Positions 6,042 through 46,779 of a stretch of 64,000 bases of DNA are shown here, one piece after another. How positions within the stretch are numbered: the stretch's first letter is position 1; the number at the start of each line of letters is the position of its first letter. The notes beneath the pieces are model-generated. The model was given only the letters and a program-made list of their open reading frames with translations, had not been told where the DNA came from and searched no databases. A program made the translations under genes and the position numbers. The stretch is from contig JAGVZQ010000001.1 of NCBI GenBank assembly GCA_018302465.1, positions 2,235 through 66,234 of the forward strand, read 5' to 3'. The DNA comes from Candidatus Woesearchaeota archaeon. GTDB lineage: Archaea; Nanobdellota; Nanobdellia; SCGC-AAA011-G17; GW2011-AR20.

Positions 6042-7589
6042 TTATGCTCTGTACCTTACTTTGTCATACCAGTTTTTGAAACCAACCGGCATTGATCTAT
6101 AAACTGGTTTTGCTACATTTTCCCTCATTGTATCCATTACAGAGACCACTTCACCAACCATATTTGTAGGAGATTTGAATTTAAGATTGAAATCCACCAT
6201 GCCTCTTGATATTAATCTGTCAACTACTACTGTTGGCAATAGACCGTATCTTGTTTTTGTGCATGGACCCCTCATTAAATTTAATACTAAATTTAGGTAA
6301 GCATTCTTCTTTTTTAATTTGATATGCTGCCATCTATCCCAGTAATTAAGCATTGAAGCTGTATCATTGTAAGTTTTAATTAAGCCATCTTCTCTTGCTT
6401 TTTTGTATAATGGAGTTCCTTCAAAGAAGATTAAATTATTTACGCTTAAGTAGAACGGGGGCGGTAATTTCCTGATTAATTTTATTGTCTCCAAAATATC
6501 TTCTTTTGTTTCATAAGGATTAGAAGAGATAATATCATACATTACTGCAAGTTTAGCATTATGTTTATTCAGGACTTTAGCGCATCTTAAAACCTGGTCT
6601 GCGCTGATAAATCTATTATAAACTTCTTTGTTTAATCTGTCGGAGCCTGACTGGATTCCTATAATAATATCTGTTAGGCCTGCATCAACTAATAAATCAA
6701 TTTTTTCAGAGCTTACGTTTTCAGCACTCATTGTTGCCGGCTCTGCTAAACATTTAAATCTTATTCCTACTTCTTTTTTATACCTTTTAGCAAATTCTTT
6801 TATCCATTTTATATCTCTTATTGTAAAAGTTTCATCTCTTAGGTCAAATGCACCAATTGAATGGAATTTTTCCTTTAATCTTTTTAATTCTTTGATTACA
6901 TAATCAACAGAATGTGTTCTTAGTAAATCTCCCTTCCCTTTGTATAATTCACGCATAATATTGTTGGTACAGTAAGAGCAAGCTTGAGGACAACCACGCT
7001 CTGTCTGGAAGAATATCATGCCTCCAAGATGTCTTTCTTCAAATGGAATTAATTTCCCTTTTTCCAAAATCAATTGATCTTCAATATCATAATCTGGGTG
7101 AGCAAGTTCATCTAAATTGTGAACTGGTGAACCAACTGGATTTATTATTTCTTTTCCATCCTGTCTTACCCATAAATTTTTTATTTCAGTGATATCTTTT
7201 CCTTCTTCTAAGTTTCTTGCTAATTCAATTATTGCGTTCTCTGCTTCTCCTACTGCAATTATATTACAGGATTCAAAGCATTTTTGTGGGAAGAAAGTTG
7301 GATGAGGCCCTCCCCAAACAACTGGAATGTTTTTAGTTTGAAATAAATAAATTAATTGAGTAGCTCTTCCTGTAGTTGATTCCATGGCGCTAATACCTAC
7401 TAAACCTGAACCTTCAGCTGCTTTTTCTACATGCATTAATTCAGATTTAGTATAGGTTCTAGAATAATCCTCTACAAGAGGCAAGAATATCATCTGCACT
7501 TCATGCTTTTCCCGTTCCAAGCAGGCAGATAAAGTTCTAAGGCCCTGATCTGCCGGGAATGTAGAAGTTGAAATTAGGGTAATTTTCAT
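6042..7589 (-). CDS. Cobalamin (B12)-binding domain radical SAM enzyme, class B (paralog 1 of 5)
   Basis: N-terminal Rossmann-like B12-binding region (MKITLISTS...GLVGISA...WGGPHPTF) followed by a radical SAM core with RGCPQACSYC (Cx3Cx2C). Length is 515 aa. Confidence 0.85.
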   Translation of the reverse strand: MKITLISTSTFPADQGLRTLSACLEREKHEVQMIFLPLVEDYSRTYTKSELMHVEKAAEGSGLVGISAMESTTGRATQLIYLFQTKNIPVVWGGPHPTFFPQKCFESCNIIAVGEAENAIIELARNLEEGKDITEIKNLWVRQDGKEIINPVGSPVHNLDELAHPDYDIEDQLILEKGKLIPFEERHLGGMIFFQTERGCPQACSYCTNNIMRELYKGKGDLLRTHSVDYVIKELKRLKEKFHSIGAFDLRDETFTIRDIKWIKEFAKRYKKEVGIRFKCLAEPATMSAENVSSEKIDLLVDAGLTDIIIGIQSGSDRLNKEVYNRFISADQVLRCAKVLNKHNAKLAVMYDIISSNPYETKEDILETIKLIRKLPPPFYLSVNNLIFFEGTPLYKKAREDGLIKTYNDTASMLNYWDRWQHIKLKKKNAYLNLVLNLMRGPCTKTRYGLLPTVVVDRLISRGMVDFNLKFKSPTNMVGEVVSVMDTMRENVAKPVYRSMPVGFKNWYDKVRYRA

Positions 7590-7650
7590 TCATAACACCT
7601 TTATTATATCTATGATTATAATTTATATAGCTTTTGGAAAAAATTTTAAT

Positions 7651-8904
7651 TCAGAGAACTAAAGAGGCCAATCCAAGGAATGTAAAAAACCCTAAAACAT
7701 CAGTTGCTGTTGTAATAAAAATTGTTGCTGAGGAAGCTGGGTCTTTTTTAAAGTGTTTCATGATTAAAGGAACAATGGCTCCGAAGAAACCTGCTATCAT
7801 TAGATTGAAAATAATAGCTGCTCCGGTGATTATTCCTAAAAGCAGGCTTTGATTGAAAATAAATGCTACTAGTGCAACTAAAACGCCGTTAATTACTCCA
7901 TTTATCCCTCCCGCTATTACCTCATTGAATATTACTTTTTTTGCTGTCCTTAATTCAATCTCTTTTAATGCTAGCCCCCTAACAACTACTGCTAAGGTTT
8001 GGGTACCTGCGTTTCCGCCCATTCCTGCCACTACAGGCATGTAAGCTGCCAATATCACAAATGATGAGATTGTATCTTTAAATAGACCGACTACTGAGGC
8101 TGCAAGAAATGCAGTTGCTAAGTTTAAGATTAACCATTTGTAACGGGATTTTACTTTTTTATATATTGGATCATGAACGCCTTCTTCTTCACTAACACCA
8201 GCTGATACATATAGCTCTCTTGTTGATTCTTTATTCATCAGCTTAACAACATCATCTGAATAGATTACACCTAAGATTTTTTTATTGTCATCTAGGACAA
8301 CTACTTTGTTTCCTGGATGTCTTTTGAACACCCTCAGAACTCTTGACTCATCTTTACTATGATTAATAGTTGGAACTTTTTCAATGAAATTATTTATTTT
8401 TTCTTTTTTCTTACGCAGAGCAAAAACATGGCCTGGAAGTTCTCCTATCAAGACATCTTGTTTGTCTACTACCAGAATTGTTGGGAACTTCCCTGTTCTT
8501 TTTTCATGCTCCCGGATAATATCAGATATCTGACTGAAGGTTATATCCTTCTTTACTTTAGTATAATCAAGACTCATAAGCCCTGCAGCAGTTCTTGGGT
8601 TGAATGTCAATAAGAATTCTACTTTTTTTCTTGTCTCTGAACTTAATTCAATAATAACACTCTTCCTTTTTTTCTGGTCTAAGATGTTCTGTATAATATC
8701 TGTACTTTCATCAGGGGCTAAATAATTTAAGATATTAACAATTTCTTCTGTATTTAACTGATTCAGAAGTTTTTGCTGCACTGCTTTTGATAATCTTAAT
8801 AAAACAAATCCTCTTTTTTCTATTGGTATTTCTTTAAGAATTGCTTTTTTAGGAGAAGAAATTAATCTATAAGAGATGTCATTTGTTGCTGCTTTTTTCT
8901 CCAT
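7651..8904 (-). CDS. mgtE: Magnesium transporter MgtE
   Basis: MgtE N-domain, tandem CBS region and C-terminal TM domain with the MPVVAGMGGNAGTQ signature. Confidence 0.85.
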   Translation of the reverse strand: MEKKAATNDISYRLISSPKKAILKEIPIEKRGFVLLRLSKAVQQKLLNQLNTEEIVNILNYLAPDESTDIIQNILDQKKRKSVIIELSSETRKKVEFLLTFNPRTAAGLMSLDYTKVKKDITFSQISDIIREHEKRTGKFPTILVVDKQDVLIGELPGHVFALRKKKEKINNFIEKVPTINHSKDESRVLRVFKRHPGNKVVVLDDNKKILGVIYSDDVVKLMNKESTRELYVSAGVSEEEGVHDPIYKKVKSRYKWLILNLATAFLAASVVGLFKDTISSFVILAAYMPVVAGMGGNAGTQTLAVVVRGLALKEIELRTAKKVIFNEVIAGGINGVINGVLVALVAFIFNQSLLLGIITGAAIIFNLMIAGFFGAIVPLIMKHFKKDPASSATIFITTATDVLGFFTFLGLASLVL

Positions 8905-8982: not shown

Positions 8983-9939
8983 TTATATACTTTTATGTTT
9001 TGAGTGCCAATCCCAAGCACTTTTGATTATGTCTCTTATGTTATATTTAGCTTCCCAGTTTAATTCAGTTTTAGCTTTTAATGGAAAAGCTACTAATTCT
9101 GCAGGATCTCCTGGTCTTCTCTCTTCTTCTATTACTTTAATTTCTCTGCCTGTTATTTCCTTGCAGAGATCAATCACTTCTCTGACTGATGTCCCTTTTC
9201 CAGTACCCAAGTTATAGACCCCTGATTTTCCTTCTTCTAAAGATTTTAACGCAAGAATATGTGCAGATGCTAAATCCAAAACATGTATATAATCTCTGAT
9301 GCAGGTTCCATCTTTGGTTGGATAGTCTGTTCCAAATATTTTAATTGAGTCTCTTTTTCCTAAAGCTGCTTCCAAAACTATTGGGATTAAATGGGTTTCA
9401 GGATTATGGATTTCACCAATTCCAAAAGCTGCACCTGCTGCATTAAAATACCTTAAGGCAATAAAGTTAATCTTAGATGATTCTAAAACCTGCTCGAATA
9501 ATTTTTTAGACAGACCATAGTAATTAACAGGATTTGTCGGATGTGATTCTTCTAAAGGAAGTTTTTCCGGAATCCCGTAAGTTGCACATGTGCTTGAAAA
9601 AACAATTTTGTTTACATTAAATTTCTTCATTGTTTTAAGCAGATTAATTCCATTAGCCAAGTTATTGTGAAAATATTTGACTGGATTTTCCATTGACTCG
9701 CCAACAAGAGCATAACCTGCAAAGTGAATTACTGCATCTATTTTGTTAGAGCTAAAAACTTCCTCCAAATCTTTTTTATTTTCAAGATTTCCCTGGAATA
9801 ATTTAGCCGTTTTAGGAAGAAACTCTTTATAGCCATTTTCTAAACTGTCAAAGACTACAACATTAAACCCTTGATTAATCAGTTCATGGACTGTATGACT
9901 GCCAATATAACCAGCCCCGCCTGTTACTAGAACATTCAT
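8983..9939 (-). CDS. galE: UDP-glucose 4-epimerase (GalE family, extended SDR)
   Basis: MNVLVTGGAGYIGSH (GxxGxxG), YGLSKKLFE (YxxxK), 318 aa, GalE-like throughout. The ATGA start overlaps the upstream GT9 stop. Confidence 0.85.
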   Translation of the reverse strand: MNVLVTGGAGYIGSHTVHELINQGFNVVVFDSLENGYKEFLPKTAKLFQGNLENKKDLEEVFSSNKIDAVIHFAGYALVGESMENPVKYFHNNLANGINLLKTMKKFNVNKIVFSSTCATYGIPEKLPLEESHPTNPVNYYGLSKKLFEQVLESSKINFIALRYFNAAGAAFGIGEIHNPETHLIPIVLEAALGKRDSIKIFGTDYPTKDGTCIRDYIHVLDLASAHILALKSLEEGKSGVYNLGTGKGTSVREVIDLCKEITGREIKVIEEERRPGDPAELVAFPLKAKTELNWEAKYNIRDIIKSAWDWHSKHKSI

Positions 9940-11021
9940 TTTAAACTCCTCACAGCATTTAAAACATCATTTATTTCAATTGCTTTCATGCACTCCATAA
10001 ATCTTTCTCCTTTCAAATAACAATTGGATTTCATGCAAGAAGTATGAACATTATTCTTGAAAACGACTCTGTAATTATTAGAATAAGGGTGCCATATTTC
10101 TGGTGTTCCTGCTCCGAATAAAGCAACTACTGGAATATTAAACCCTGCTGCAACATGCATTGCTGATGTATCTATGCTTATTACAAATTCTGCATTTTTA
10201 ATTATTATAAAAAATTCTTTCATTGAAGTTCCTGAAAGATTATGTAGCTTACTTTTACATAATTTTACAATCTTTTCATTACTTTCATAATCTTCTTTCA
10301 TTCCAGTTATTACTGCTTCTGTTTTATATTCATTGTTCAAGATATCAACAGTTTCTGCAAATCTTTCAGGAAGCCATTCCCTGTTCTGAGCATGCCTTGA
10401 TGTGTTATGGATTACAAAATATTTTTTTGGTGATTTCATTTTAATTTTTTTATCTACATACAGTTCCAGGAATTTCGCTTTTGAATAAACTCCAATCGTT
10501 TTTACAACATCTAAGTTGTCATCTATTTTGTGTTTTATTTTATATGTAGGAAAGGTCTTTCTGTGCAGGAATAAACCTCTGTTTTCCGAGAAACCAACTT
10601 TAGTGCAGCCGATTCTAAATGGGATTTTAGCCTTCATTAACATCTTACTTATTTGGAATGTTCCATTATGAAGAATCACAGCTAAATTATATTTATTTTT
10701 TAGGTTATTAGTCCATTTTTTAAAATCATAATCAAATGGAAGTATCTCATTTATGTTTGGATTACCATAAAGAACATCTTTCATTGATTCGGGGACAAGA
10801 ATATCAATCTCAGCATCTGGAAATTTTTCCTTTAATGCTCTTATTGTAGGTGTTGCTGCTATTATATCTCCTATAAATTTTAACTCAACAATTAAAATTC
10901 TTTTTGGAGTTTTAAATCTTTTAAACTTGAATGGAAACATATAGGTGTAATCCAGAAAGTAATCTATAAACCAGAGGGAATTCCTTAAAACATCCTTGAA
11001 AGGGGTTATTCTGTTTACCAT
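9936..11021 (-). CDS. Glycosyltransferase family 9 (heptosyltransferase-like)
   Basis: RILIVELKFIGDIIAATPTIRALKEKFPDAEIDILV (GT9 N-terminal block) and IDTSAMHVAAGFNIPVVALFG (GT9 C-terminal DSGxMHxAAAxG-like block). Confidence 0.7.
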   Translation of the reverse strand: MVNRITPFKDVLRNSLWFIDYFLDYTYMFPFKFKRFKTPKRILIVELKFIGDIIAATPTIRALKEKFPDAEIDILVPESMKDVLYGNPNINEILPFDYDFKKWTNNLKNKYNLAVILHNGTFQISKMLMKAKIPFRIGCTKVGFSENRGLFLHRKTFPTYKIKHKIDDNLDVVKTIGVYSKAKFLELYVDKKIKMKSPKKYFVIHNTSRHAQNREWLPERFAETVDILNNEYKTEAVITGMKEDYESNEKIVKLCKSKLHNLSGTSMKEFFIIIKNAEFVISIDTSAMHVAAGFNIPVVALFGAGTPEIWHPYSNNYRVVFKNNVHTSCMKSNCYLKGERFMECMKAIEINDVLNAVRSLK

Positions 11022-11072: not shown

Positions 11073-12260
11073 ATGAGAATCCTTATAATAAATGATTCCT
11101 GCAGGGAAGTTGGGGGGGCAGAGACATACATATTTGGAATAATGAAGTTACTGAGAGAGCAGGGGGACGAGGTTTTTCTATTCAGCTATGATACTGAGAA
11201 AAGAGAAGAGGATTATTCTCTTATAATAAAACATAAAGAAAAGAAAGCAAGATTTCTTGTAAATAAGTTTGGGTTTAGTATGAGAGTTTATAATGAATTG
11301 AAAGACTATATTAAGAATGTTAATCCTGATGTTATTCATCTTCATAATAATTATATCTACTCAAATTCTGTTTTATTAGCTTTAAAAAAATCAAAGAAAC
11401 CAGTAATACACCATGTGCATGACTGGGGATTAATATGCCCTACTTCTTGGAGTGTCTATAAAAAATCATTAAAGGTCTGCAAATCTGTGGAGGGTATACA
11501 ATTCAAATGCCTGAGAAAAGGGTGTTTGCCGTTTCATCATTGGATTTCTACTTACTTAAGAAATAAGATAAGAATAAAATTAGAGAGGAATGTTGTTGAT
11601 TTATTTATCTCTCCAAGTATAAGACTAAGAGATTACTTAAAAGATCATAATATGAACCCAGTGATATGGCTACCCCAATTTATCGAATTTGAAGATGTTG
11701 AGGTTAGAATTCCAAATGGGAATATTCTTCTTTACGTTGGAGCTTTAAGTAAAAATAAAGGTGTGGAATATTTAATTAATGCATTTCCTAAGATAAAAGA
11801 AGAGATTAAGGATGCTAAATTACATATTGTTGGGGATGGACCGGAGAGAGAAGCATTAGAAGAGTTGAGTAAAGGAATGGATGTTAAATTTTTTGGGAGA
11901 GTTCCGCATGATGAAGTTTTAGAGCATTATAAACACGCGAAATTATTAGTAATGCCAAGTGTATGGATGGAAAATGGCCCCTTTGTTTTATATGAAGGTA
12001 TGAGCTCTGGAAAACCAGTGATAGCTACAAAAAGAGGGGGTATAGTTGATCTGGTAAGAGATGGGATAAACGGGTTTATTGTAAGGGCTGCTGATTCAGA
12101 AGCAATAGCAGAAAAAACCATTAAACTTTTAAAAGACAAGAACTTACTAAAAGAGTTCTCGAAAAGCTCACAGAAAATAATAAAGGAAGAATTCACAACA
12201 AAAAAGCATTTGAATTATCTTAATAACCTTTATAAAGATGTGATAGAGAAGAAGAGGTAA
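11073..12260 (+). CDS. Glycosyltransferase family 4 (GT-B)
   Basis: C-terminal GT4 signature LLVMPSVWMENGPFVLYEGMSSGKPVIATKRGG (E-x7-E region). Confidence 0.8.
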   Translation: MRILIINDSCREVGGAETYIFGIMKLLREQGDEVFLFSYDTEKREEDYSLIIKHKEKKARFLVNKFGFSMRVYNELKDYIKNVNPDVIHLHNNYIYSNSVLLALKKSKKPVIHHVHDWGLICPTSWSVYKKSLKVCKSVEGIQFKCLRKGCLPFHHWISTYLRNKIRIKLERNVVDLFISPSIRLRDYLKDHNMNPVIWLPQFIEFEDVEVRIPNGNILLYVGALSKNKGVEYLINAFPKIKEEIKDAKLHIVGDGPEREALEELSKGMDVKFFGRVPHDEVLEHYKHAKLLVMPSVWMENGPFVLYEGMSSGKPVIATKRGGIVDLVRDGINGFIVRAADSEAIAEKTIKLLKDKNLLKEFSKSSQKIIKEEFTTKKHLNYLNNLYKDVIEKKR

Positions 12261-12262
12261 AT

Positions 12263-13702
12263 ATGAAAGTCTTACTTATTAATCCACCTTTAACTGCTAA
12301 AGAGCAGGCTAGAGATTTTGAAGCTGCGGTTAATGTATTACCTCCTTTAGGTATTGCCTATATTGCATCTGTTTTAGAGCAGGATGGATTTGATGTAAGT
12401 ATTATTGATAGCCTTGTTATGGGAGCTACTCATTCTTGGATAAGGGAATTTATGGAAAGAGAGAAACCAGAGATGGTAGGAATTGCTGCTACTATTTTAC
12501 AAGTTGAAAGTGCAGATTTGGTTGCAAAAAATGCTAAAGAAATCTCTCCTAATTCAGTTGTAGTCATAGGAGGACCGCATGTTGCAACTATGCCTGAAAG
12601 AGTTGTTAGGGAAGGACGATATTATGATTTAGGTGTTACTGGTGAAGCAGAGTATACCTTTAGAGAGATTGCAAGGAAAATCAGAAGTAAAGATTTTAAT
12701 TTTGCGGGAGTTCAAGGTTGTTATGCTAAAAAGAAAGATGGAAGTATTTCTTTTGGAGGCGTAAGACCTTACATCGCTGATTTAAATGAACTGCCTTTTC
12801 CAGCAAGACATTTATTGCCCCCCTTAAGTGTTTATACTCCTAGTCCTATTACTTACAGAAAATTCCCAGTTGGGACAATGATGTCAAGCAGAGGATGCCC
12901 TGCACAATGTACTTTTTGTGATAGAAGTGTTTTTGGAAATTGGACAAGACAGAGAGACTACATGAATGTTGTTGATGAGATGCAGGAATTAGTTGAGGTA
13001 TATGGGGCTAAGGAAATTAAATTCTATGATGATACTTTTACAATAAATCAAAAGAGAGTAATTCAGATTTGCGATGAGATAAAAAGAAGGAAATTAGATG
13101 TTACATGGTCCTGTTTGACAAGAGTAGCTAATGTAAATAAAGAGATTTTGGAAGCAATGCATTCAGCCGGATGCTGGCACTTATTGTATGGTATTGAGAA
13201 TGGAAATCAACATATGCTAGACTATATTAAAAAAGGAACAAATTTAGATCAGATAAGAAAAGCTGTTAAATGGGGAAAGGAAGCTGGAATAAATATCAGA
13301 GGTTCTTTTATTTGCGGGTTACCGGGAGAGACAAAAGAAACTATTGAAACTACTGTTAAATTTGCTTTAAGTTTAGGTTTGGATGAGGCGAATTTCTATA
13401 CATTAGCTTTGTATCCTGGAAATGAATTATATCATATGATGAAAAAGGAGGGGAAGATAAGACATGAAAATTATGAAGATTATAATCCCTTAGCTTATGA
13501 TGACGGGGCGGTATTAGCTTATGTCCCAGATGGGATGGATGAAAAAGAACTAAAACAAATGATAAAAAGAGCGCATAGAAGATTTTATTTCAGACCTACT
13601 TATGTTGCAAGACAAGTAATGAATATTAGGTCTAAAGAAGACATTAATAGATACTGGCATGCTGCTAGGGCGTTATTTAAGCTAAATTATGCTTCTGGAT
13701 AA
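12263..13702 (+). CDS. Cobalamin-binding radical SAM enzyme, class B (paralog 2)
   Basis: MKVLLINPPL...GIAYIASVLEQDGFDVSIIDS...VIGGPHVATMP is a B12-binding domain. SSRGCPAQCTFC is the Cx3Cx2C motif. Length is 479 aa. Confidence 0.85.
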   Translation: MKVLLINPPLTAKEQARDFEAAVNVLPPLGIAYIASVLEQDGFDVSIIDSLVMGATHSWIREFMEREKPEMVGIAATILQVESADLVAKNAKEISPNSVVVIGGPHVATMPERVVREGRYYDLGVTGEAEYTFREIARKIRSKDFNFAGVQGCYAKKKDGSISFGGVRPYIADLNELPFPARHLLPPLSVYTPSPITYRKFPVGTMMSSRGCPAQCTFCDRSVFGNWTRQRDYMNVVDEMQELVEVYGAKEIKFYDDTFTINQKRVIQICDEIKRRKLDVTWSCLTRVANVNKEILEAMHSAGCWHLLYGIENGNQHMLDYIKKGTNLDQIRKAVKWGKEAGINIRGSFICGLPGETKETIETTVKFALSLGLDEANFYTLALYPGNELYHMMKKEGKIRHENYEDYNPLAYDDGAVLAYVPDGMDEKELKQMIKRAHRRFYFRPTYVARQVMNIRSKEDINRYWHAARALFKLNYASG

Positions 13703-13733
13703 GTGTTTTAAGCTTTTTTAATTAATTCTATAT

Positions 13734-14822
13734 ATGAAAATTGTGCATGTTACTGGATATTTTGATCCTAATGTTGGTTATGAGGAAACTTACCTATCCT
13801 TAAACCAGAAAGAATTAGGTCATGAGGTTTATGTCATAACTACTGACAGGAATCCAAAAATTCCCGGTGTTAAGATTACAGAATTAGAATCTGAATTTAA
13901 AGGCGTTAAAATAATCAGACTTCCTGTTATTTTTGGAATAAACGATTTTTTAGTTGTTAAAGGCATGAAGAAAATACTGAAAGAGATAAAGCCAGATGTT
14001 GTACATGTGCATGAACCAAGGCAGTTTATTTCTGCAATGCCTGCTTTTTACAAAGATGAACTAAAATATAAGTTAATAGCAGACCAGCATGACTATGATA
14101 TCTTCCCCACGTTAAAAGCGAGATTGACTACAAGGTTATTAAGAAAACCTTTATGTGTTTATACCTTCAATAAAGCAGATAAGATAATTTCTACAAATCC
14201 TGAAGCTAAAGATTTTCTGATAAGTGTTTATGGAATTAAAAAGGAGATAATAGAATCAAGCCTCGGAGCTGATACTGAGTATTTTAAGTTTAATGAGAAA
14301 AAGAGAAAAGAAATAAGGGATAGACTAGGAATTAAAGATGAAGTTTTAATTATTTCAGCAGGGCATGTTGGAAGGATAAAAAGATTAGAGATTTTGATTA
14401 ATGCTGTTTCTGAAATAAAAGCTAAACTTTTAATTCTTGGAGGGGGGGATGAAGAGTACATAGAAGAGTTGAAGAAATTATCTGGTGAGAATATATTTAT
14501 TGATAGGATTGCGCAAAAAGAATTGCCTTATTATTATTCCGCTGCAGATATTGGGGTCTGGCCTTCGAGAGCAACAATAACTATTGTAGAAGCTATGTCC
14601 TGCGGATTACCCGTAATAATTCCAAACAGAAAAGTTGTGAATCACTTCATAAAAAATGGAGGAGGCATTAATTTTGATAATGATTTAAGAGAAAAAATAA
14701 AATTCTTAGTTAATAATAAAAAAGAAAGAAGCAGGTTATCTAAAGAGGCAAGGAAAACTGTCGAGGAAAATTTTAACTACAGAAAAATAGCTGAAAGGTT
14801 GATTAACATTTATAATTCATAA
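13734..14822 (+). CDS. Glycosyltransferase family 4
   Basis: MKIVHVTGYFDP... N-terminal GT4 domain and C-terminal EAMSCGLPVIIPN block. Confidence 0.75.
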   Translation: MKIVHVTGYFDPNVGYEETYLSLNQKELGHEVYVITTDRNPKIPGVKITELESEFKGVKIIRLPVIFGINDFLVVKGMKKILKEIKPDVVHVHEPRQFISAMPAFYKDELKYKLIADQHDYDIFPTLKARLTTRLLRKPLCVYTFNKADKIISTNPEAKDFLISVYGIKKEIIESSLGADTEYFKFNEKKRKEIRDRLGIKDEVLIISAGHVGRIKRLEILINAVSEIKAKLLILGGGDEEYIEELKKLSGENIFIDRIAQKELPYYYSAADIGVWPSRATITIVEAMSCGLPVIIPNRKVVNHFIKNGGGINFDNDLREKIKFLVNNKKERSRLSKEARKTVEENFNYRKIAERLINIYNS

Positions 14823-39643: not shown

Positions 39644-41167
39644 TTAAGCTAAATCATCCTCATCTTTAATAAATACAGAGCTAACTTTTTGATTTACAAG
39701 GTTTTTAACAATTTTAGCACTATACATGATTTCTTCAAATGATTTATTCTTAGGAAGAACTGTTTTTATTATAAATCTGGGACTGGTTAATGATTTCATT
39801 TTATGCTTCATAAACTCTGCATAAGCCTGTTGTTGCAATCCTTGCAATTCGTCTCCTGAAAAATAATGAGTTCTGTATTGAGAGGCAGCTAAACTGCTTG
39901 ATTCTTTTATTCCTTCATCTAACAACCCCTCTTCCTGGAATTTTTTATACAAAGGAGTTCCTGCATAAGGCTGTGCAATATAAAATTGCGCAAAATCTAA
40001 ACCAGAATCTTTAGCAAATTCTATTGTATCCCTGATATGCTTCATTGATTCATGCGGAAAGCCAAGTAAAAATGTTGAGCATGTCCAGATTCCAAGTCTA
40101 TGGCAGATTCCAATTATTTTTCTTGCATATTTCAGATTTATTGGCTTATCAATATATTTCAAAGTTTCTTCATTTCCAGATTCAATTCCAAAAATAGCTA
40201 GATAATAACCAGCTTTCTTCATTAAAGTAAGAATTTCTTCATTTAAAGTCCAGATAGCAATCCCATTTGGAGTATACCATTTAATGTCTAATTTTCTTTT
40301 TATAATTTCTTTACAAATTTCTTTAATTCTTTGACCTGAAACTGCTAAGTTATCATCCTGGATCCTGAATTGCCTTACATTATAAGTTTTAACTACATGC
40401 TCTATTTCATCAACAACATTTGTTGGTGATCTAGAACGCCAAACTCTTCCCCATACTGTGAAAATTGAGCAGAAAGAACAATGTTGCGGACAGCCTCTGC
40501 TTGTTATTATATCTGTTGATCTCCCGCGCATAGCCCATAAAGCACTGTCTGGATGGGTGATATAACGCTCCATTGGCAATAGATGGCGAGCGGGAAATGG
40601 TAATGAATCTAAGTCTTTGATGAAAGGTCTAGGTTTATTTTTAATTGGAGAAGTGTTTCCTCTTTCAATTGTGCCATCTATTCCTGTTAATTTTTCTTTA
40701 TTCTCATATTTAGAAATGATTTCATTAAATGTTTCCTCTCCTTCTCCGAAAGCTATTAAATCAACATTTTTATTTTTAAAAACTGAATTAGGCTCTGCTG
40801 AAGAATGTGCGCCACCAAATACAATTAAAGAGTTAGGATTTATTTTTTTTGCTAAATTTGCTATTTCAAAAGCATCCTGTTCGTAAGCAGTATAGCCACA
40901 GTTAATGCCAATGACATCTGCGTTTATTTCCCTCATTCTTTTTTCAATTTCATCATAGCTTAGACCAACATGATATTTATTTGGACCTAATTTTTTGACT
41001 TTTTCATAATAAGCTAAAGAATCTATAATCCTGACAAAGAAACCATTTTTTTCTAAATAAGCTGCAATATAAGCAGGACCTAGAGGGAATTTTACATTTC
41101 TTATACCTGCCCTTAAATCTCCTCTTAGAGGGGGAATAACGAACAGCACTCTTGTCTTTTTATCCAT
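39644..41167 (-). CDS. Cobalamin-binding radical SAM enzyme, class B (paralog 4)
   Basis: TRVLFVIPPL...GPAYIAAYLEKNGFFVRIIDS...VFGGAHSSAEP is a B12-binding domain. TSRGCPQHCSFC is the radical SAM motif. Length is 507 aa. Confidence 0.85.
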   Translation of the reverse strand: MDKKTRVLFVIPPLRGDLRAGIRNVKFPLGPAYIAAYLEKNGFFVRIIDSLAYYEKVKKLGPNKYHVGLSYDEIEKRMREINADVIGINCGYTAYEQDAFEIANLAKKINPNSLIVFGGAHSSAEPNSVFKNKNVDLIAFGEGEETFNEIISKYENKEKLTGIDGTIERGNTSPIKNKPRPFIKDLDSLPFPARHLLPMERYITHPDSALWAMRGRSTDIITSRGCPQHCSFCSIFTVWGRVWRSRSPTNVVDEIEHVVKTYNVRQFRIQDDNLAVSGQRIKEICKEIIKRKLDIKWYTPNGIAIWTLNEEILTLMKKAGYYLAIFGIESGNEETLKYIDKPINLKYARKIIGICHRLGIWTCSTFLLGFPHESMKHIRDTIEFAKDSGLDFAQFYIAQPYAGTPLYKKFQEEGLLDEGIKESSSLAASQYRTHYFSGDELQGLQQQAYAEFMKHKMKSLTSPRFIIKTVLPKNKSFEEIMYSAKIVKNLVNQKVSSVFIKDEDDLA

Positions 41168-41188: not shown

Positions 41189-42160
41189 CTATATAAGTTT
41201 TCTGAATCTGTTTAAAACCCATACTTTTCCGTAAATTAAAGTTATTAGGAAAACAGCTGGAGCATGCAGTATCCAGGCTTTTTCTTTTGTTTTAAAATAA
41301 TTTTTAATTGAGACAATTAAGTTAGGAAGAATTGTTAATGAGCTTATTAAGAATGAAATAAATATAATGTATTCATTAAATGTTCTTGGCTCCCAGAAGT
41401 ATTTTCTGTTTTCTATATTTTCAGTTCTTTGATGGGTTGCCCAGTAGTTTCTTTTTTTTAAGAAGTTAAAGAAAGAATCAATTGCTAAATGGTGAGTATA
41501 CGCATTTTTAGGTATAGCTAATTTAAGATTTTTTTCTGCAAAGGAATAAATCATTTCTACATCCTGGGTATAGCCATTAATTTCATCTAAATATTTTTTC
41601 TTTACTATAAAACAATTACCGCCGGTGCATAAGCAGTTTTCAGTTTGCAAAATATAAGTAAAATAATCTCCTTCATCTATTAACTTAATTTTATTTAATG
41701 CCATTCTACCCTCTATTGAACGGTAAATAGCAAAAGGATCTGTTCCAACTAAACTAAGATACCTATTCGTTATATTGTCTTCTTTTTTTACTAATAATTT
41801 ACAGGCACAACCAATAACTTCTTTGGCGCTTAATGGCTTAATCATCTCTTTTAACCATTTCTTGCCTTGTAATTCATTATCCTGGTCTACAAAAGCTATT
41901 AATTCATTTTTGGCTTTCTGAACTGCCTGATCCTTTCCCATGCCTTTTCCTTCAGGGAATCTTTTTTTATTATTTAGTAATTTAACAGGATATTTTTTTA
42001 ATAATTCTAATGTTCCATCTGTAGATCCACCATCTATTGTTATGACTTCAATCTTATCTTTTGGATAATCCTGAGAAAAAATACTATCTAGACAGCGTTT
42101 TACTAATTCTTTGTTATTGTAAGTCGGTATTACAAAGCTTACTGATGGTAAATTTTTCAT
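41189..42160 (-). CDS. GT2 glycosyltransferase with C-terminal TM region
   Basis: VSFVIPTYNNKELVKRCLDSIFSQDYPKDKIEVITIDGGSTDGT, VDQDN (DxD-like). Confidence 0.8.
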   Translation of the reverse strand: MKNLPSVSFVIPTYNNKELVKRCLDSIFSQDYPKDKIEVITIDGGSTDGTLELLKKYPVKLLNNKKRFPEGKGMGKDQAVQKAKNELIAFVDQDNELQGKKWLKEMIKPLSAKEVIGCACKLLVKKEDNITNRYLSLVGTDPFAIYRSIEGRMALNKIKLIDEGDYFTYILQTENCLCTGGNCFIVKKKYLDEINGYTQDVEMIYSFAEKNLKLAIPKNAYTHHLAIDSFFNFLKKRNYWATHQRTENIENRKYFWEPRTFNEYIIFISFLISSLTILPNLIVSIKNYFKTKEKAWILHAPAVFLITLIYGKVWVLNRFRKLI

Positions 42161-42354: not shown

Positions 42355-42443
42355 TGGGCTATTCGACCATTCTCGTTAGAGTTGTCCAAGTTGTTCCTGT
42401 TGGAGTTGAGGCCAAGATTCCTGTTAAGGTAAACCCCCGAGAT
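42355..42443 (-). repeat. Decayed, out-of-frame duplicate of the 3'-terminal coding segment of gene 42550-43299
   Basis: The minus-strand translation ISGVYLNRNLGLNSNRNNLDNSNENGRI aligns with the parent C-terminus ISGVYLDWDLGLYSYGYDLGNSLEDGRV. About 75% nt identity to 42553-42650. No start codon; in-frame TGA upstream. Confidence 0.45.
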
Positions 42444-42549
42444 TTGTAGCCTGTTAATTAAAAGTAAATCACCACTGCTTCATTTTTCATTTCTTACTAA
42501 ATGTTGCAGTTGAATTTTATGGCTTTATTTTTAAAGCACTATCAAGTGG

Positions 42550-43299
42550 CTACGCCACAACAACTACCCGACCATCCTCGAGAGAGTTGCCCAAGTCGTA
42601 CCCGTAGGAGTAGAGGCCAAGATCCCAGTCAAGGTAAACCCCCGAGATTCCTAAGTTATCTAAAGATGGTTCTTGTTGTCTTGTTGTGCATAACCTTCTT
42701 GATCCTTCTTCTGATTTACAGGGCAATCCGTCTTCTAATGAAACATTTTCATTTGAGAAATTTCCATCTTGTCCTGCTAGGATTGATGCATGCCTTACTG
42801 TTGTATCTTCAGTTACTTCAAAATTAAGTTTGTATTGCCCTTCATCAAAATTTTTAAGCCCATATCCTACAAGCATGCATGGAACTCTGTCTAAAGTTCT
42901 TTCATCTGAAGGAAGCTGATTAAATAAGTCTACAGCCATTTCGTGGTTTTTTCCAGAGAAATCGAGGGCTATTCCTAAGTCAACATAGAATCTATCTCTT
43001 ATTCCTAATATGTCCCCATCATTTAAAGTTCTTTGAATTTCCTCAGGTCTTATTATTCTTTTTTCAGGTGCTACTAAAGACTGAGCAACTGGCAAAATTA
43101 GGGGGCTTGAGCCTGTAACTGTTGGAATATCATTTATAACTCTTAATTCAAGCCTTTTTAGACATTTATTTCCGTTATATCGATCATCAATTACTTGATT
43201 AAAATCTCTTAAAAATTGTTGTGCACCCTGCCCATGAAGCAAGTAAAGAATAATAGGTGGTTGTTTTATTCCAGGTTTAAATGCATATTCTGGTGCCAT
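42550..43299 (-). CDS. Hypothetical protein (249 aa), compositionally atypical, possible alpha/beta-hydrolase-like N-terminus
   Basis: PPIILYLLHGQGAQQF resembles the esterase LHGxG motif. The C-terminal Tyr/Asp/Gly-rich tail is YLDWDLGLYSYGYDLGNS. GC content is markedly above the window average. Confidence 0.4.
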   Translation of the reverse strand: MAPEYAFKPGIKQPPIILYLLHGQGAQQFLRDFNQVIDDRYNGNKCLKRLELRVINDIPTVTGSSPLILPVAQSLVAPEKRIIRPEEIQRTLNDGDILGIRDRFYVDLGIALDFSGKNHEMAVDLFNQLPSDERTLDRVPCMLVGYGLKNFDEGQYKLNFEVTEDTTVRHASILAGQDGNFSNENVSLEDGLPCKSEEGSRRLCTTRQQEPSLDNLGISGVYLDWDLGLYSYGYDLGNSLEDGRVVVVA

Positions 43300-43382: not shown

Positions 43383-44513
43383 TCAATTCTTTCTATGGGT
43401 TATTCTCTGGACTACTGGGATTTTATTGACGAATTTGTACTTGTCAAATATCTCAGATTCATTAACTCCACAGGATGAACATATGCCTACTCTTTTCTTG
43501 ATTAATTGCCTTCTGAAAGCTCTTGCTTTTTCATTATTCCATATTTTCATGAACGGCTCTTCAAATACATTGCCAAAAACTATCTCATTTTCAGCATAAA
43601 AATCACAAGGACAGACATTGCCATCCCATGTGATGTAGGGAGTATACCATGGCAGAAAACAAGGAGCTGTTTTGTTATGGCCTTTATTTACACTTTCTCC
43701 CTCTATTTTATCAAATTTATATAAGAAATTGATTAAGTTTGCAATTCGCACGTCTGTTTTCACATTCCTTAGAACTTCTTTTAATTCTTCTCTTACTTTT
43801 ATTATATCTTCTGCTTTGCTTTTATTTAAACCTAAGTCTGTATTTTCATTCATTCCTAATCTAATAACGAAAGTACCGTTTATTGAATCAACTCCAATTT
43901 TATCTGCCCATTTTATGTATTCTGGCAATTGCATTAAGTTTTCCTGCTGGACAACCATGAAAGTATGAATGTTTGTTACAGTATTCCCAACTTCTTTTTT
44001 TAATTTAACAAAGTTTTCTGTGTTTTCTATTACTTTTTCAAAATTAGCACCAACTCTTATTTTTTCATAGGTGTCTTTTTTCATGCCGTCAATTGAAATT
44101 GATAAAATATTTGGAGAAGATTCAAGCATTTTAAGGCCATTATTTCTATTTAGTAATGTAGCATTAGTATCTAACTTTACAAATGTATTTTTTGATCTTG
44201 CATGCGCAATTATTTTATAAATATCTTTATTCAAGAAAGGCTCTCCAATTCCTGTTAGATTTAAGTAACAAGGATAGATCTGGTCAAAAATATGCCTGTA
44301 ATTTTCATAAGAGATTGAACCAATAGGCCTTTTCAAACCAACACCATGGGGGCACATGTTGCATTTTAAGTTGCAAACAGTTGTATTTTCCAGTTTTAAC
44401 TTGAAAGGTGTTGGGGCTTTTGGAGTAGAGCGCATAGCATACCATGCATTTTCCAATACTTTCCTTGGATACCTCCAAGAGATACTATGTCTTAGAATGT
44501 GTGTGTATAACAT
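43383..44513 (-). CDS. Radical SAM enzyme with C-terminal SPASM domain
   Basis: CNLKCNMC (Cx3Cx2C) near the N-terminus. C-terminal Cys-rich auxiliary-cluster region (CFLPWYTPYITWDGNVCPCDF ... GICSSCGV). Length is 376 aa. Confidence 0.8.
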   Translation of the reverse strand: MLYTHILRHSISWRYPRKVLENAWYAMRSTPKAPTPFKLKLENTTVCNLKCNMCPHGVGLKRPIGSISYENYRHIFDQIYPCYLNLTGIGEPFLNKDIYKIIAHARSKNTFVKLDTNATLLNRNNGLKMLESSPNILSISIDGMKKDTYEKIRVGANFEKVIENTENFVKLKKEVGNTVTNIHTFMVVQQENLMQLPEYIKWADKIGVDSINGTFVIRLGMNENTDLGLNKSKAEDIIKVREELKEVLRNVKTDVRIANLINFLYKFDKIEGESVNKGHNKTAPCFLPWYTPYITWDGNVCPCDFYAENEIVFGNVFEEPFMKIWNNEKARAFRRQLIKKRVGICSSCGVNESEIFDKYKFVNKIPVVQRITHRKN

Positions 44514-45367
44514 TATTTATTTAATCCCTCTTTAAAGCTTATAGGACTATAATTTAAATCTCTTTCTGCGGAAGCTATAGTTCCTTTGTACTTTGATTCT
44601 AAGCTCAATACAAATGATTTCTTCAAAGGAAAACTTGGCCCTAGAATACTTCCTACTGAACTTATTACTAGACAAATTGGAATAGGTATATGAATTTTTC
44701 TCTTTTGGATATTATATTTTTCACTTATAACATTTATGAATTCATTAAATGATATTTCATTTCTCCCTAGGATATCATAAGTTTTTTTTATTGATTTTCT
44801 TGAATTAATACATGAAATAATGGCTTTTACAACATCATCCACATGAACAGGATTTAGAGTATATTCACCGTTTCCAACAATTGGGATGAACTTAAAGGAG
44901 TTAATGAAACTGATCATCTTTTTCATGCTGTTGCTGTTTTTTCCATAAATAAAAGAAGGCCTTAATATTGTGTAATCTAAACCTGAGTTTTTTATTAAAT
45001 CCTCAGCTTCTTTTTTGCTTTTTCCGTAATCATCTAGATAATCTTTTGTAGAAGCCATTGAACTGACAAAGATTATTCTTTTTACTTTATTTTTTTTACA
45101 TGAATCAATTAAATTTTTGGTTCCCTGCACATTTACTTTGTAATAATCTTTTTTGTTTTTTGAGTCTATGACTGCTGCTAAATGTATGAGAACTTTTGTT
45201 TTCTTTAAGAGTTTATTTACTGAAACTGTATCATTAATATCTCCAACAACCGGATCTATTTTACTATTGTCTATATATTTCCTGACTAAACACTTAACCT
45301 TTTTATCTTTCAATTTAGGTATTAAATTACTCCCAAGAAATCCTGTTGCTCCTGTTATTGCAATCAT
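44513..45367 (-). CDS. NAD(P)-dependent epimerase/dehydratase family (SDR) protein
   Basis: MIAITGATGFLGSNL (GxxGxxG), YGKSKKEAE (YxxxK). Length is 284 aa. Confidence 0.75.
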   Translation of the reverse strand: MIAITGATGFLGSNLIPKLKDKKVKCLVRKYIDNSKIDPVVGDINDTVSVNKLLKKTKVLIHLAAVIDSKNKKDYYKVNVQGTKNLIDSCKKNKVKRIIFVSSMASTKDYLDDYGKSKKEAEDLIKNSGLDYTILRPSFIYGKNSNSMKKMISFINSFKFIPIVGNGEYTLNPVHVDDVVKAIISCINSRKSIKKTYDILGRNEISFNEFINVISEKYNIQKRKIHIPIPICLVISSVGSILGPSFPLKKSFVLSLESKYKGTIASAERDLNYSPISFKEGLNK

Positions 45368-46779
45368 TTTGCAGATACTGTCAGCATTTCCTTTATCTTA
45401 AATGTGAATTTATTATTTTTAAATAAGTCAAAGAACTGATGATACATCTGCTTCCTTAAGAAAAACTTCTGCTGGTTTATGAAATATTTTGTCTGCTCAT
45501 AAGCATTTGATTTATAGAATTCCCTCCATAACAAAGCAGATGAAACTTTAGAAATATTTGCATGGTGGCCAAGAACTCCAAAAGTCACATAATCTTTTAA
45601 TGATGAAGGCAACTTGGTTTTACTCTTACTTACTGATAAATTAAAATAGGGCGTTCCAGGAAAAGGTCTGTAGATTTGCAACAAGTTTTGATCAGACGGA
45701 ACTTCTTTCATGAACTTCTTTGTCATTTGGATTTCCTGCGAGGTTTCATCTGGATGACCCATCATATAAGTGATAGTCACCATTATTCCATTTTCCCTTA
45801 ATCTCTTGGTTATTTTTTTTGCTTTTTCCAATTCTATTTTCTTTCCAAGCATTTTCTGGATTCTTGGACTGCCAGATTCACATCCCAGCATTATTCCTTC
45901 ACAACCTGCTCCTGCAATTAAGTCTGCCATTCTCTCTGTCATGCAGTCAAATCTGCTTACAGTATGCCATCCTATGTTCCTTCCAGACTCTTTCATCTCT
46001 TTAACAAATTGTTCAGTAAAGGCTTCATTAGTTAGATGCATATCTCCCCCTATATCCATTCTTGAGACATGTTTTTTTGTTAAGCTTTTTACATAATCAA
46101 ATTGTTCTATTAACCTCTTTGCGCTCATGTTCCTAAATTTTCCACCATACTGCTTTACATCATTATTTGCGTGATGACAAAAACCACATCTGTATGGGCA
46201 ACCACGATTTGCTTCCATCAGAACAAAATTATGCTTTGAATATGGAAAATATTTGTCTATGTCTTTTATTAATTCCCAGGCAGGCATTGGCTTTGTTTCA
46301 ATATCTACAAACTTATCTTGGGGCGGTGTTATTTTTATTTCACTTTTAATTTTTATCCCCATTCCTTTTGGCTCTTTCTTGCTGCCATTTAAGTAAGCTA
46401 AATATTCTTCCAGAGAATATTCGCCTTCTCCCATTATTACTGCATCAATGGTTGGATGGTTTAAAGTTAAATGCGGTAAAATTGTTGCGTGAGGTCCTCC
46501 CCAAACAACATTCTTCCCCATAGATTTAGCAATATCACTTATCATCATTGCTCTTGTTAAACCTGGGCCGGTTAGAACTCCTAAAGCAACCATGTCTGGA
46601 TTGTGTAAAGAAATGTCTTTTTTTATCTGCTCTTTTGAAACTTTTAATCCAGAATAGTCAATTACTCCTACTTCGTATCCTTTTTCCCTTAAATAAGCTG
46701 CAACGCTTAGGATTCCTAGAGGAGGATAAGCTCCAAATTCTGTTGCAGGCGCTATAAATAGAACTTTTTTGTAAACCAT
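45364..46779 (-). CDS. Cobalamin-binding radical SAM enzyme, class B (paralog 5)
   Basis: KKVLFIAPATEF...GILSVAAYLREKGYEVGVIDY...VWGGPHATILP is a B12-binding domain. ANRGCPYRCGFC is the radical SAM motif. Length is 471 aa. Confidence 0.85.
   Translation of the reverse strand: MVYKKVLFIAPATEFGAYPPLGILSVAAYLREKGYEVGVIDYSGLKVSKEQIKKDISLHNPDMVALGVLTGPGLTRAMMISDIAKSMGKNVVWGGPHATILPHLTLNHPTIDAVIMGEGEYSLEEYLAYLNGSKKEPKGMGIKIKSEIKITPPQDKFVDIETKPMPAWELIKDIDKYFPYSKHNFVLMEANRGCPYRCGFCHHANNDVKQYGGKFRNMSAKRLIEQFDYVKSLTKKHVSRMDIGGDMHLTNEAFTEQFVKEMKESGRNIGWHTVSRFDCMTERMADLIAGAGCEGIMLGCESGSPRIQKMLGKKIELEKAKKITKRLRENGIMVTITYMMGHPDETSQEIQMTKKFMKEVPSDQNLLQIYRPFPGTPYFNLSVSKSKTKLPSSLKDYVTFGVLGHHANISKVSSALLWREFYKSNAYEQTKYFINQQKFFLRKQMYHQFFDLFKNNKFTFKIKEMLTVSAK

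Follow-up and report, generated by a model that had tools for sequence, protein, structure and literature searches.

What do five B12-domain radical enzymes do among the glycosyltransferases (GTs) of a tiny archaeon of symbiotic type? The question is raised by a stretch of 64,000 nucleotides from a Candidatus Woesearchaeota archaeon (contig JAGVZQ010000001.1; the whole stretch is hereafter called the window), which encodes five class-B radical S-adenosylmethionine (SAM) proteins, designated R1 to R5. The window, with a GC content of ~32%, is a mosaic of operons building a lipid-linked surface or N-linked glycan, and class-B radical SAM genes account for five of its ~48 open reading frames (ORFs) of at least 150 aa. 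Such clustering is not due to chance, given this proportion and a gene order that is kept elsewhere in DPANN archaea at 33–57% protein identity. The answer defended here, with moderate confidence, is cobalamin-dependent radical tailoring of the sugars of the glycan, most likely by C-methylation. The substrate would most likely be a sugar and not the lipid tail or a protein, and tailoring would probably occur while this sugar is lipid-linked.

Class-B radical SAM proteins of the window

The five class-B proteins, each with a single CxxxCxxC motif, and a sixth radical SAM protein (S6) are encoded as follows.

6042-7589, (-) strand: R1, 515 aa, motif RGCPQACSYC, cobalamin motifs GGPH and GEAE, PF02310 at 42.5 bits and PF04055 at 60.4 bits
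12263-13702, (+) strand: R2, 479 aa, motif RGCPAQCTFC
16416-17915, (+) strand, TTG start: R3, 499 aa, motif SGCPHKCTFC
39644-41167, (-) strand: R4, 507 aa, motif RGCPQHCSFC
45364-46779, (-) strand: R5, 471 aa, motif RGCPYRCGFC
43383-44513, (-) strand: S6, PF04055 plus PF13186 (SPASM) at 65.2 bits (cutoff 21.5)

A preliminary description of this DNA, made from its letters, had placed six radical SAM genes at these coordinates and assigned five of them to class B. Pfam profiles bear this out, since the B12-binding domain PF02310 (42.5–76 bits, cutoff 32.1) precedes the Radical_SAM domain PF04055 (60–81 bits, cutoff 29.5) in all of R1–R5, and the five cluster motifs quoted at the time are exact to the letter. 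The same description took the five genes for a paralog set serving one iterative pathway, a view that has to be abandoned in the light of identities of 22–36%, separate sub-operons and different phyletic ranges. Judged by sequence, R1–R5 are old, distinct subfamilies and not recent paralogs, with pairwise identities of 22–27% except for the R2/R4 pair (36%).

Comparison with the NCBIfam equivalogs of the superfamily (HpnJ, BchE, PhpK/Sden_1168, QCMT, HpnR, KedN5, TsrM, BzaD, AprD4 and ApyD) gave the following best matches.

R1: TIGR04072 (lipid-biosynthesis B12/radical SAM protein), 96 bits, cutoff 360
R2: HpnJ, 250 bits, cutoff 577.6
R3: BchE, 125 bits, cutoff 481
R4: Sden_1168 P-methyltransferase, 214 bits, cutoff 575
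R5: ApyD, an enzyme of ribosomally made peptides that are modified after translation (RiPPs), 136 bits, cutoff 750

No equivalog cutoff was reached in the scan of R1–R5 and S6, in keeping with the initial suggestion of an uncharacterised pathway. The scores thus define R1–R5 as superfamily members that belong to no characterised family, and naming any of the six proteins after a known family was rejected. Among proteins of solved structure, the best relative by sequence is AprD4 for R2 (1.9e-36) and R5 (1.7e-19), and QCMT (PDB 9ccb) for R3 and R4.

A further class-B gene lies outside the window, 0.75–2.2 kb to the left of position 1 on the same 180-kb contig (L170, 6133–7566; numbers preceded by L designate the loci compared in this work). 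It encodes 477 aa with RGCPYRCTFC and GGSH motifs and 32% identity to R2, and a GT2 and a class I methyltransferase are encoded farther upstream of it.

Cobalamin binding

In the structures of OxsB, TsrM and TokK, the cobalamin tail is held by a Gly-Gly motif in β4 and a Gly-Glu motif in α5 (PMC9204698). Equivalent motifs, GG[PAI]H and G[ED][AG]E, occur at aligned positions in five out of five window proteins and show no variation within the R2 family or the R5 family; in the R2 profile they align onto the corresponding residues of TokK, TsrM, OxsB and QCMT. The situation differs for AprD4, which does not bind cobalamin (PMC12931638): its radical SAM core aligns with the R2 profile but its N-terminal domain does not. 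A PF02310 match is by itself no proof of cobalamin use, because AprD4 and ArsL carry similar domains without cobalamin. Foldseek failed to separate cobalamin-dependent from cobalamin-free relatives, AprD4 having the top TM-score, and for this reason the question was addressed through the motifs. The AlphaFold2 (AF2) model of R5 (pLDDT 90.6) matches MgmA/QCMT, TsrM, OxsB, TokK and CysS over both domains, and AprD4 is also among its matches. Intact motifs, the R2 profile alignment and these fold matches together make cobalamin binding by R1–R5 likely, as far as sequence and predicted fold can tell.

The sixth radical SAM protein

S6 had been described as a SPASM-type enzyme. The PF13186 match supports this call, but its cysteines fit it only in part: beyond the radical SAM triad, the only cysteines conserved among 34 family members are C285, C303, C345 and C348, out of five C-terminal cysteines in total, and the seven-cysteine motif for two auxiliary [4Fe-4S] clusters is absent. 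Four conserved residues would suffice for one auxiliary cluster and not for the full SPASM pair. BtrN is the best PDB sequence match of the auxiliary domain, and the cysteine spacing recalls what we take to be the ligand positions of its single-cluster twitch domain. Going by its sequence, S6 is better described as twitch-like than as SPASM. The AF2 model (pLDDT 88.9) matches the folds of SuiB, DesII, CteB, BlsE, anSME and BtrN, among which DesII, BlsE and BtrN are carbohydrate enzymes and SuiB and CteB peptide maturases.

Glycosyltransferase operons around the radical SAM genes

Pfam assigns to the window six GT2, four GT4-type (PF00534/PF13439) and two GT9 glycosyltransferases, two PMT_2 (GT-C) proteins, two Wzx-type flippases, one PF00953 initiating transferase (GT_init), three extended short-chain dehydrogenases/reductases (SDRs), two class I methyltransferases, a carbamoyltransferase and a UDP-GlcNAc 2-epimerase. 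The glycan-assembly surroundings claimed at the outset (GT2, GT4, GT9, GT-C, two Wzx and a PF00953 transferase) are therefore real, and R1–R5 are indeed class-B-type proteins with intact cobalamin motifs inside lipid-linked-glycan operons. Their integration was underestimated: instead of two, at least four of the five genes belong to tight GT operons (gaps of -11 to +34 bp), and R1–R5 each lie within their own GT sub-operon. The partners of the class-B genes, assigned by Pfam, are listed here.

9936-11021, (-) strand: GT9_a, overlapping SDR_a by 4 bp, partner of R1
8983-9939, (-) strand: SDR_a, partner of R1
7651-8904, (-) strand: MgtE, magnesium transporter between SDR_a and R1
11073-14822, (+) strand: GT4_a - R2 - GT4_b operon, gaps of 2 and 31 bp
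16416-19270, (+) strand: R3 - class I methyltransferase - GT2_a operon, 8-bp overlap and 1-bp gap
41189-42160, (-) strand: GT2_d, two C-terminal transmembrane (TM) segments, followed by R4 after a 21-bp gap
43383-46779, (-) strand: R5 - SDR_c - S6 triad, overlaps of 4 and 1 bp, SDR_c at 44513-45367
46814-47713, (-) strand: GT2_e, upstream part of the R5 operon
47703-48452, (-) strand: GT2_f
48442-49707, (-) strand: Wzx_b
49708-50691, (-) strand: GT_init

GT_init, Wzx_b, GT2_f, GT2_e, R5, SDR_c and S6 form an abutting or overlapping minus-strand run (-11 to +34 bp), in which the first four genes overlap by 0 to 11 bp. For R1, the MgtE gene separates it from SDR_a in the window and in L009; it is missing from L007, a related Woesearchaeote, where R1 abuts the SDR-GT9 pair, so that R1 also is part of a GT operon and MgtE appears to be a lineage-specific insertion in it. 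R1 orthologs of 84–86% identity are found in L006, L007 and L009, and one of 56% in Nanoarchaeota (L044) adjoins a GT2. The R3 - methyltransferase - GT2_a order is likewise kept in L006, L007 and L009.

Several GT2 enzymes resemble those that load sugars on polyprenyl phosphates. The best NCBIfam matches of GT2_a, GT2_b and GT2_f are AglJ, dolichyl-phosphate hexose transferase, ArnC or PgfS (the first two for GT2_a), all below cutoff. GT2_d and GT2_e were considered for the same role of dolichyl-phosphate sugar synthase, but comparison of their sequences with NCBIfam and the PDB either gave no information or indicated TarS/PcManGT-like enzymes, which limits the polyprenyl-phosphate synthase claim to GT2_a, GT2_b, GT2_f and the GT2 fusion partner described below. 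SDR_c has HpnA as its best NCBIfam match (85 bits, far below cutoff), with further affinities to OleD and 3-beta-hydroxysteroid dehydrogenase (3-beta-HSD).

The R5 cassette in DPANN genomes

Orthologs of R5 with at least 42% identity form ~48 clusters, and all those with a named source belong to DPANN archaea (Woese-, Pace- and Nanoarchaeota); the next proteins have at most 34% identity. A scan of metagenomes with the R5 alignment yielded only L089 and L090 as new orthologs, the rest being distant class-B proteins.

The conserved cassette, shared by Pace-, Nano- and Woesearchaeota, comprises a PF00953 transferase, Wzx, two GT2, R5, SDR, S6 and another GT2, with PMT_2, R4 and GT9 nearby. The GT2-GT2-R5-(methyltransferase)-SDR-S6 order is kept in Pacearchaeota L086, Nanoarchaeia L087, L088 and L089, and the R5-SDR-S6 triad itself in all four of these other full contexts (with a methyltransferase inserted in L087); GT_init and Wzx precede the cassette wherever the fetched flank extends that far. 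Twelve genes of the window have orthologs in L086 (32–49% identity), including GT2_d, PMT_2, R4, GT9_b and GT2_c. There, the GT2_c, GT9_b and PMT orthologs adjoin the R5 cassette, and the R4 ortholog (47%) lies beside PMT_2 and GT9. Orthologs of GT_init, Wzx_b, GT2_f and GT2_e stand in the window's order in both L086 and L089. Directly upstream of the orthologous cassette, L086 and L089 encode STT3/AglB with its WWDYG motif, which ties the cassette to N-glycosylation.

The R2 family across prokaryotes

With more than 5000 matches and 369 confirmed stretches in species-representative genomes, the R2 family extends far beyond DPANN. It is present in Woese-, Nano-, Iain- and Hydrothermarchaeota and Bathyarchaeia, and in bacteria among Omnitrophota, Planctomycetota, Deltaproteobacteria, Saccharibacteria, Anaerolineae and Elusimicrobia. 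By R2, the contigs closest to the window (90–91% identity) come from Candidatus Woesearchaeota metagenome-assembled genomes. In a related Woesearchaeote, the 835-aa R2 ortholog P0004 contains an intein (PF14528) directly before the radical SAM cluster motif; its junction reads ...GTMMS|C... where the window R2 has SRGCP.

Gene context was surveyed within ±10 kb of the 80 best loci. At least one GT is encoded in 57 of them, two to five class-B genes in 35 and a SPASM-type gene in 23. Clusters of several class-B genes with GTs recur in Woese-, Pace- and Nanoarchaeota, Omnitrophota, Planctomycetota and others, so the arrangement first thought to be singular turns out, upon comparison of synteny, to be repeated in archaea and bacteria with two to five class-B genes. 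Thus, L002 has the order GT2 - B12-radical SAM - PMT - GT2::B12-radical SAM - SPASM - SDR, with a carbamoyltransferase farther on, and L004 combines three class-B genes and two SPASM genes with Wzx, GT2 and DegT.

Two features link this family to sugars. The first is fusion: three R2-family proteins (P0050, P0059 and P0074) carry an N-terminal GT2 domain, all three of these halves being closest to the short GT2 proteins of the window, GT2_b, GT2_f and GT2_a. The GT2 half of P0050, the one scanned, best matches ArnC, PgfS, dolichyl-phosphate hexose transferase and PpgS, all below cutoff, and the best NCBIfam match of the fused protein is HpnJ (232 bits, cutoff 577.6). The second is an aminotransferase. 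A GT2 directly upstream of most R2 orthologs was considered and rejected upon measurement of the gaps, the intervening gene being DegT. In many bacterial loci it separates R2 from GT2 (or SPASM), and in nine out of nine cases tested it encodes a DegT/DnrJ/EryC1 sugar aminotransferase (208–429 bits). Of the 80 R2 loci, 52 have a DegT gene within 10 kb and 22 have one within 250 bp; a DegT gene occurs in 5 of 83 comparison loci, which were fetched via R5 and its relatives, are mostly distant class-B and do not constitute a clean background. Operons of the GT2 (or SPASM) - DegT - R2 type recur in the PVC group, Omnitrophota, Planctomycetota and Iainarchaeum (L054, L057, L063, L069, L046, L024, L072, L074 and L084). 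The window and its closest relatives are without DegT, and R2 stands there between two GT4 genes.

Proposed mechanism and rival explanations

Tailoring would begin at the cytoplasmic face, where a GT would transfer a sugar either to dolichyl phosphate as the carrier or to the lipid-linked oligosaccharide under construction. The 5'-deoxyadenosyl radical of the radical SAM enzyme would then take a hydrogen from an unactivated carbon of this sugar, and methylcobalamin would, in the most likely case, give a methyl group, leading to a C-methyl-branched sugar. In the R5-SDR-S6 triad, the BtrN-like S6 and the short lipid-type SDR may take care of the redox chemistry that flanks the radical reaction, either from alcohol to ketone and back or as a reduction after dehydration. 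Finally, transport of the tailored sugars to the cell surface would fall to the Wzx flippases and to enzymes of GT-C type, namely PMT_2 and an AglB encoded outside the window.

A sugar substrate is favoured because the partners of the radical SAM genes are GTs, sugar aminotransferases, SDRs of sugar type, class I methyltransferases, flippases, GT-C and AglB, and because no lipid-synthesis, RiPP-precursor or phosphonate genes appear in the context. The preliminary description had left the choice between the glycan and its polyprenyl carrier; the GT2 fusion, the DegT linkage, the AglB adjacency and the similarity to AprD4, BtrN and DesII speak for the sugar and not for the polyprenyl tail. That tailoring takes place at the lipid-linked stage is suggested by the ArnC-like GT2 fusion, the PMT_2 neighbours and the lipid-type affinities of SDR_c, and by the HpnI/HpnK/HpnJ and GenD1 precedents. 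As for the chemistry, C-methylation, proposed from the start, keeps its place as the most likely reaction but becomes one of several candidates. It is favoured since it is the default class-B chemistry, the cobalamin motifs are intact and the gene set mirrors GenD2-GenS2-GenN-GenD1; no group of B12 radical SAM enzymes is better represented than the C-methyltransferases (PMC12931638).

Several observations weigh against this proposal. All five subfamilies are without a characterised member, and NCBIfam scores far under the equivalog cutoffs leave the chemistry of R1–R5 a prediction. DPANN genomes are small and usually without cobalamin synthesis. AprD4 has the top TM-score to the R5 model (0.71–0.74), and it belongs, with ArsL, to the same similarity network without binding cobalamin (PMC12931638). 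GT2_d and GT2_e, upstream of R4 and R5, are not assignable to the polyprenyl-phosphate sugar synthase class; no STT3 is detected by tblastn in the 64-kb window, which has no DegT gene either. Lastly, adjacency of GT2 and R2 within 150 bp is seen in only 8 of the 80 loci, and the context statistics are approximate, as they derive from mechanically called ORFs and hidden Markov models built from the window's own proteins.

The explanation that best withstands comparison with methylation is a non-methylating sugar chemistry, which we hold to be unlikely on balance and yet a serious rival, in view of the similarity to HpnJ and AprD4 and of the obligatory SDR and BtrN-like partners of R5. Under this heading fall radical rearrangement or a contraction of the ring, with carbocyclic or cyclitol units as products (HpnJ-, Cds- or OxsB-like), 1,2-diol dehydration followed by SDR reduction, i.e. 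deoxygenation (AprD4/AprD3-like), and oxidation or epimerisation, which would be anaerobic; different subfamilies may differ in reaction. HpnJ is the best match of R2 (250 bits), while AprD4, a paromamine diol dehydratase, is the best solved sequence relative of R2 and R5 and heads the fold matches of R5. AprD4 works with a reductase, and an SDR always follows R5, the one in the window having hopanoid-associated HpnA as its best match (85 bits, far below cutoff); furthermore, the succession of HpnI, a GT, and HpnJ parallels the GT2::radical SAM fusion. Against these likenesses stand the GG/GE motifs kept in all five proteins and the unaligned N-terminal domain of AprD4, scores for HpnJ and AprD4 of less than half the family cutoffs, the absence of an HpnK-type deacetylase from the window, and the predominance of methylases among characterised class-B enzymes.

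Methylation or cyclisation of a lipid, either the dolichol/polyprenyl carrier or membrane isoprenoids, by HpnP/HpnR-, Gmm- or GrsA/GrsB-like enzymes, is very improbable. Several class-B or B12-domain radical SAM enzymes do act on isoprenoid lipids (PMC13459092), the best match of R1 is the lipid-biosynthesis family TIGR04072 (96 bits against 360) and SDR_c resembles the lipid-substrate SDRs OleD and 3-beta-HSD, but neither the window nor the related cassettes contain an isoprenoid or ether-lipid synthesis gene, the steady partners are GTs, DegT, sugar SDRs and AglB, the fusion partner is a glycosyltransferase, and the R2 family is common in bacteria of quite different lipids. The least probable target is a protein or peptide (S-layer, pilin or secreted; QCMT/Mmp10- or RiPP-like) or a phosphonate (P-methylation, PhpK-/Sden_1168-like), as the matches that could suggest it (ApyD for R5, 136 bits; the Sden_1168 P-methyltransferase for R4, 214 bits) are all far below cutoff, QCMT (PDB 9ccb) as best solved relative of R3 and R4 and SuiB and CteB among the top S6 folds notwithstanding, while Pfam scans of the window detect no precursor-peptide gene, RiPP recognition element or phosphoenolpyruvate (PEP) mutase/phosphonate gene and the conserved context is glycan assembly. 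The phosphonate idea drawn from the best match of R4 was rejected on the lack of PEP mutase in the window.

Comparison with known systems

Sugar C-methylation as proposed here has its closest parallel in gentamicin biosynthesis, where GenD2, GenS2, GenN and GenD1 are an oxidoreductase, a transaminase, an N-methyltransferase and a cobalamin radical SAM C-methylase that act on an attached sugar (PMC4340712). GenD1 and GenK methylate an unactivated carbon of a sugar whose glycosidic bond is already made, and the kinds of gene that accompany them, for an oxidoreductase, a transaminase of DegT type and a methyltransferase of class I, also surround R2-family genes. The likeness is one of gene set and described reaction, and the Gen enzymes differ in making an actinomycete secondary-metabolite aminoglycoside instead of a lipid- or protein-linked surface glycan; moreover, the window is without DegT.

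In the hopanoid pathway, HpnI, HpnK and HpnJ act on lipid-linked glucosamine: a GT2 loads the hexosamine and the B12-domain protein HpnJ remodels the sugar (PMC13459092). HpnJ is the best NCBIfam match of both R2 and the GT2::radical SAM fusion (250 and 232 bits against 577.6). In contrast to this pathway, the window is archaeal, Pfam scans reveal neither an HpnK-type deacetylase nor squalene-hopene cyclase or other hopanoid genes in it, and dolichyl phosphate is the presumed carrier. For HpnJ and for calditol synthase Cds, ring contraction is itself only a proposed chemistry.

Other relatives of R2/R5 or S6, namely AprD4 (with AprD3), BtrN, DesII and BlsE, are carbohydrate enzymes. Differences separate them too: R1–R5 keep the GG/GE motifs, unlike cobalamin-free AprD4, which aligns on the radical SAM core only, and S6 is ~100 residues longer than BtrN; TM-scores are only ~0.6.

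The logic of the ArnB-ArnC-ArnD-ArnT system (also GtrA/B/C and PpgS) is the same, with an aminotransferase producing an amino sugar, GT2 loading on polyprenyl phosphate, editing of the lipid-linked sugar and GT-C transfer to the outer side of the membrane. The GT2 half of P0050 scores best against ArnC, and the radical SAM genes have PMT_2 GT-C and DegT genes in their company; the editing enzyme would here be a radical SAM protein and not a deformylase, and the scores are below cutoff. Genes of the window that recall archaeal N-glycosylation (Agl) pathways are the PF00953 initiating transferase, the Wzx-type flippase and the GT2s of AglJ/dolichyl-phosphate hexose transferase type. Agl clusters are centred on AglB, which is missing from the window but present as AglB/STT3 upstream of orthologous cassettes. 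No radical SAM enzyme is known to us from any of the Agl pathways characterised so far.

Other features of the window

The remaining glycan genes and associated features are given below.

14810-16339, (-) strand: EpsG/DUF6798-like membrane protein, ~9 predicted TM segments, candidate polymerase or GT-C-like protein; position kept in L006-L009
19250-31080, mixed strands: second glycan block (Pfam, TM prediction) with carbamoyltransferase, methyltransferase, Wzx_a, GT2_b, 678-aa protein, UDP-GlcNAc 2-epimerase, SDR_b, GT4_c, Cys-rich lipoprotein and GT4_d
23865-25901, (-) strand: 678-aa membrane protein between GT2_b and the UDP-GlcNAc 2-epimerase, ~10 predicted TM segments, the C-terminal part being a large soluble domain
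32339-39616, (+) strand: GT2_c, GT9_b, HldE-cupin, PMT_a and PMT_b (Pfam)
42359-43299, (-) strand: module of diversity-generating retroelement (DGR) type between S6 and GT2_d
42550-43299, (-) strand: variable protein ORF of this module, 249 aa
42564-42649: variable repeat, 86 nt, in the last 30 codons of the 249-aa ORF
42359-42444: template repeat, 205 nt downstream of the variable repeat
42441-42595: RT-16 RNA (Rfam RF03019), full length, 74.4 bits against a gathering score of 50, spanning the repeat interval

The 678-aa protein has a GT-C- or polymerase-like architecture. It has no Pfam, NCBIfam or PADLOC match, and its identification as AglB was rejected since STT3 similarity and a WWD motif are both lacking. 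HldE-cupin consists of the heptose-7-phosphate kinase domain (HldE domain I; TIGR02198, 350 bits, cutoff 345) fused to a C-terminal cupin. At 33727-36178, (+) strand, its gene adjoins one of the GT9 heptosyltransferase family, of which a second is found at 9936-11021 (-). The HldE kinase and GT9 genes together suggest a heptose-containing glycan in an archaeon.

The template and variable repeats of the DGR-type module differ at 14 positions, and all 14 mismatches fall on adenines of the template, in which A accounts for 28 of 86 bases; such a pattern is, at sequence level, the signature of diversity-generating retroelements. The variable protein has no Pfam, NCBIfam or PADLOC match, and Pfam scans detect no reverse transcriptase domain among window ORFs of at least 150 aa. 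The module is absent from L086, where the S6 and GT2_d orthologs adjoin.

Two small Cys-rich proteins without family match (29241-29876, (+), and 50844-51305, (-)) share a near-identical lipoprotein-like signal peptide, LLIAGCQ[EQ]TVG, and may be secreted glycoprotein substrates. A PADLOC scan of five ORFs without Pfam matches returned nothing. The window also encodes topoisomerase VI A/B, MCM and a KH protein, by which the genome is recognised as archaeal; inteins with LAGLIDADG homing-endonuclease domains are found in Top6B (1578 aa; 52458-57194, (-)) and MCM (1163 aa; 60475-63966, (-)).

Novelty and biological significance

Neither the enzyme class nor the notion of tailoring sugars by radical chemistry is new. 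To our knowledge, cobalamin-dependent radical sugar tailoring is restricted to a few antibiotic pathways (gentamicin, fortimicin), with proposals for hopanoid and calditol head groups. What is new is the setting in primary surface or N-glycan assembly, with conserved DPANN cassettes and a pan-prokaryotic family linked to DegT and GT2, fusions included. That the pathway was undescribed, as first supposed, agrees with the open-access literature, in which no paper on it was found: none was seen to describe radical SAM enzymes as members of archaeal Agl, DPANN or polysaccharide clusters, although an account in a subscription journal is possible, and no paper relates AglB to radical SAM in a relevant sense. 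Glycans and polysaccharides are both absent from a 2026 review of B12 radical SAM enzymes (PMC12931638). The recurrence of uncharacterised cassettes in many uncultured archaea and bacteria points to an undescribed way of tailoring surface sugars.

A broader and tentative view, rather doubtful at present, is that B12 radical SAM enzymes constitute a large unrecognised class of glycan-tailoring enzymes acting on polyprenyl- or dolichyl-phosphate-linked sugars. In some lineages they would be coupled to an ArnC-like synthase, their products would include C-methyl branches and rearranged or carbocyclic sugars, and GT-C enzymes and AglB would display such sugars on the surfaces of DPANN, Omnitrophota, Planctomycetota and candidate phyla radiation (CPR) cells.

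Should the proposed tailoring of glycan sugars be confirmed, a first biological context would be given to several large clusters of B12 radical SAM proteins so far labelled 'unknown', in lineages that account for much of uncultured microbial diversity. New sugar structures and a new enzymology, namely C-C bond formation on lipid-linked glycans, would be expected, genome-reduced DPANN cells would have a concrete reason to scavenge cobalamin, and defined targets for heterologous reconstitution would be at hand in the triad of R5, SDR and S6, in the GT2::R2 fusion and in the operon of GT2, DegT and R2. On the broader view, genome-reduced symbionts would spend five or six B12- and SAM-consuming enzymes on unusual surface sugars, which could serve host recognition or virus evasion, consistent with a DGR-diversified gene in the operon.

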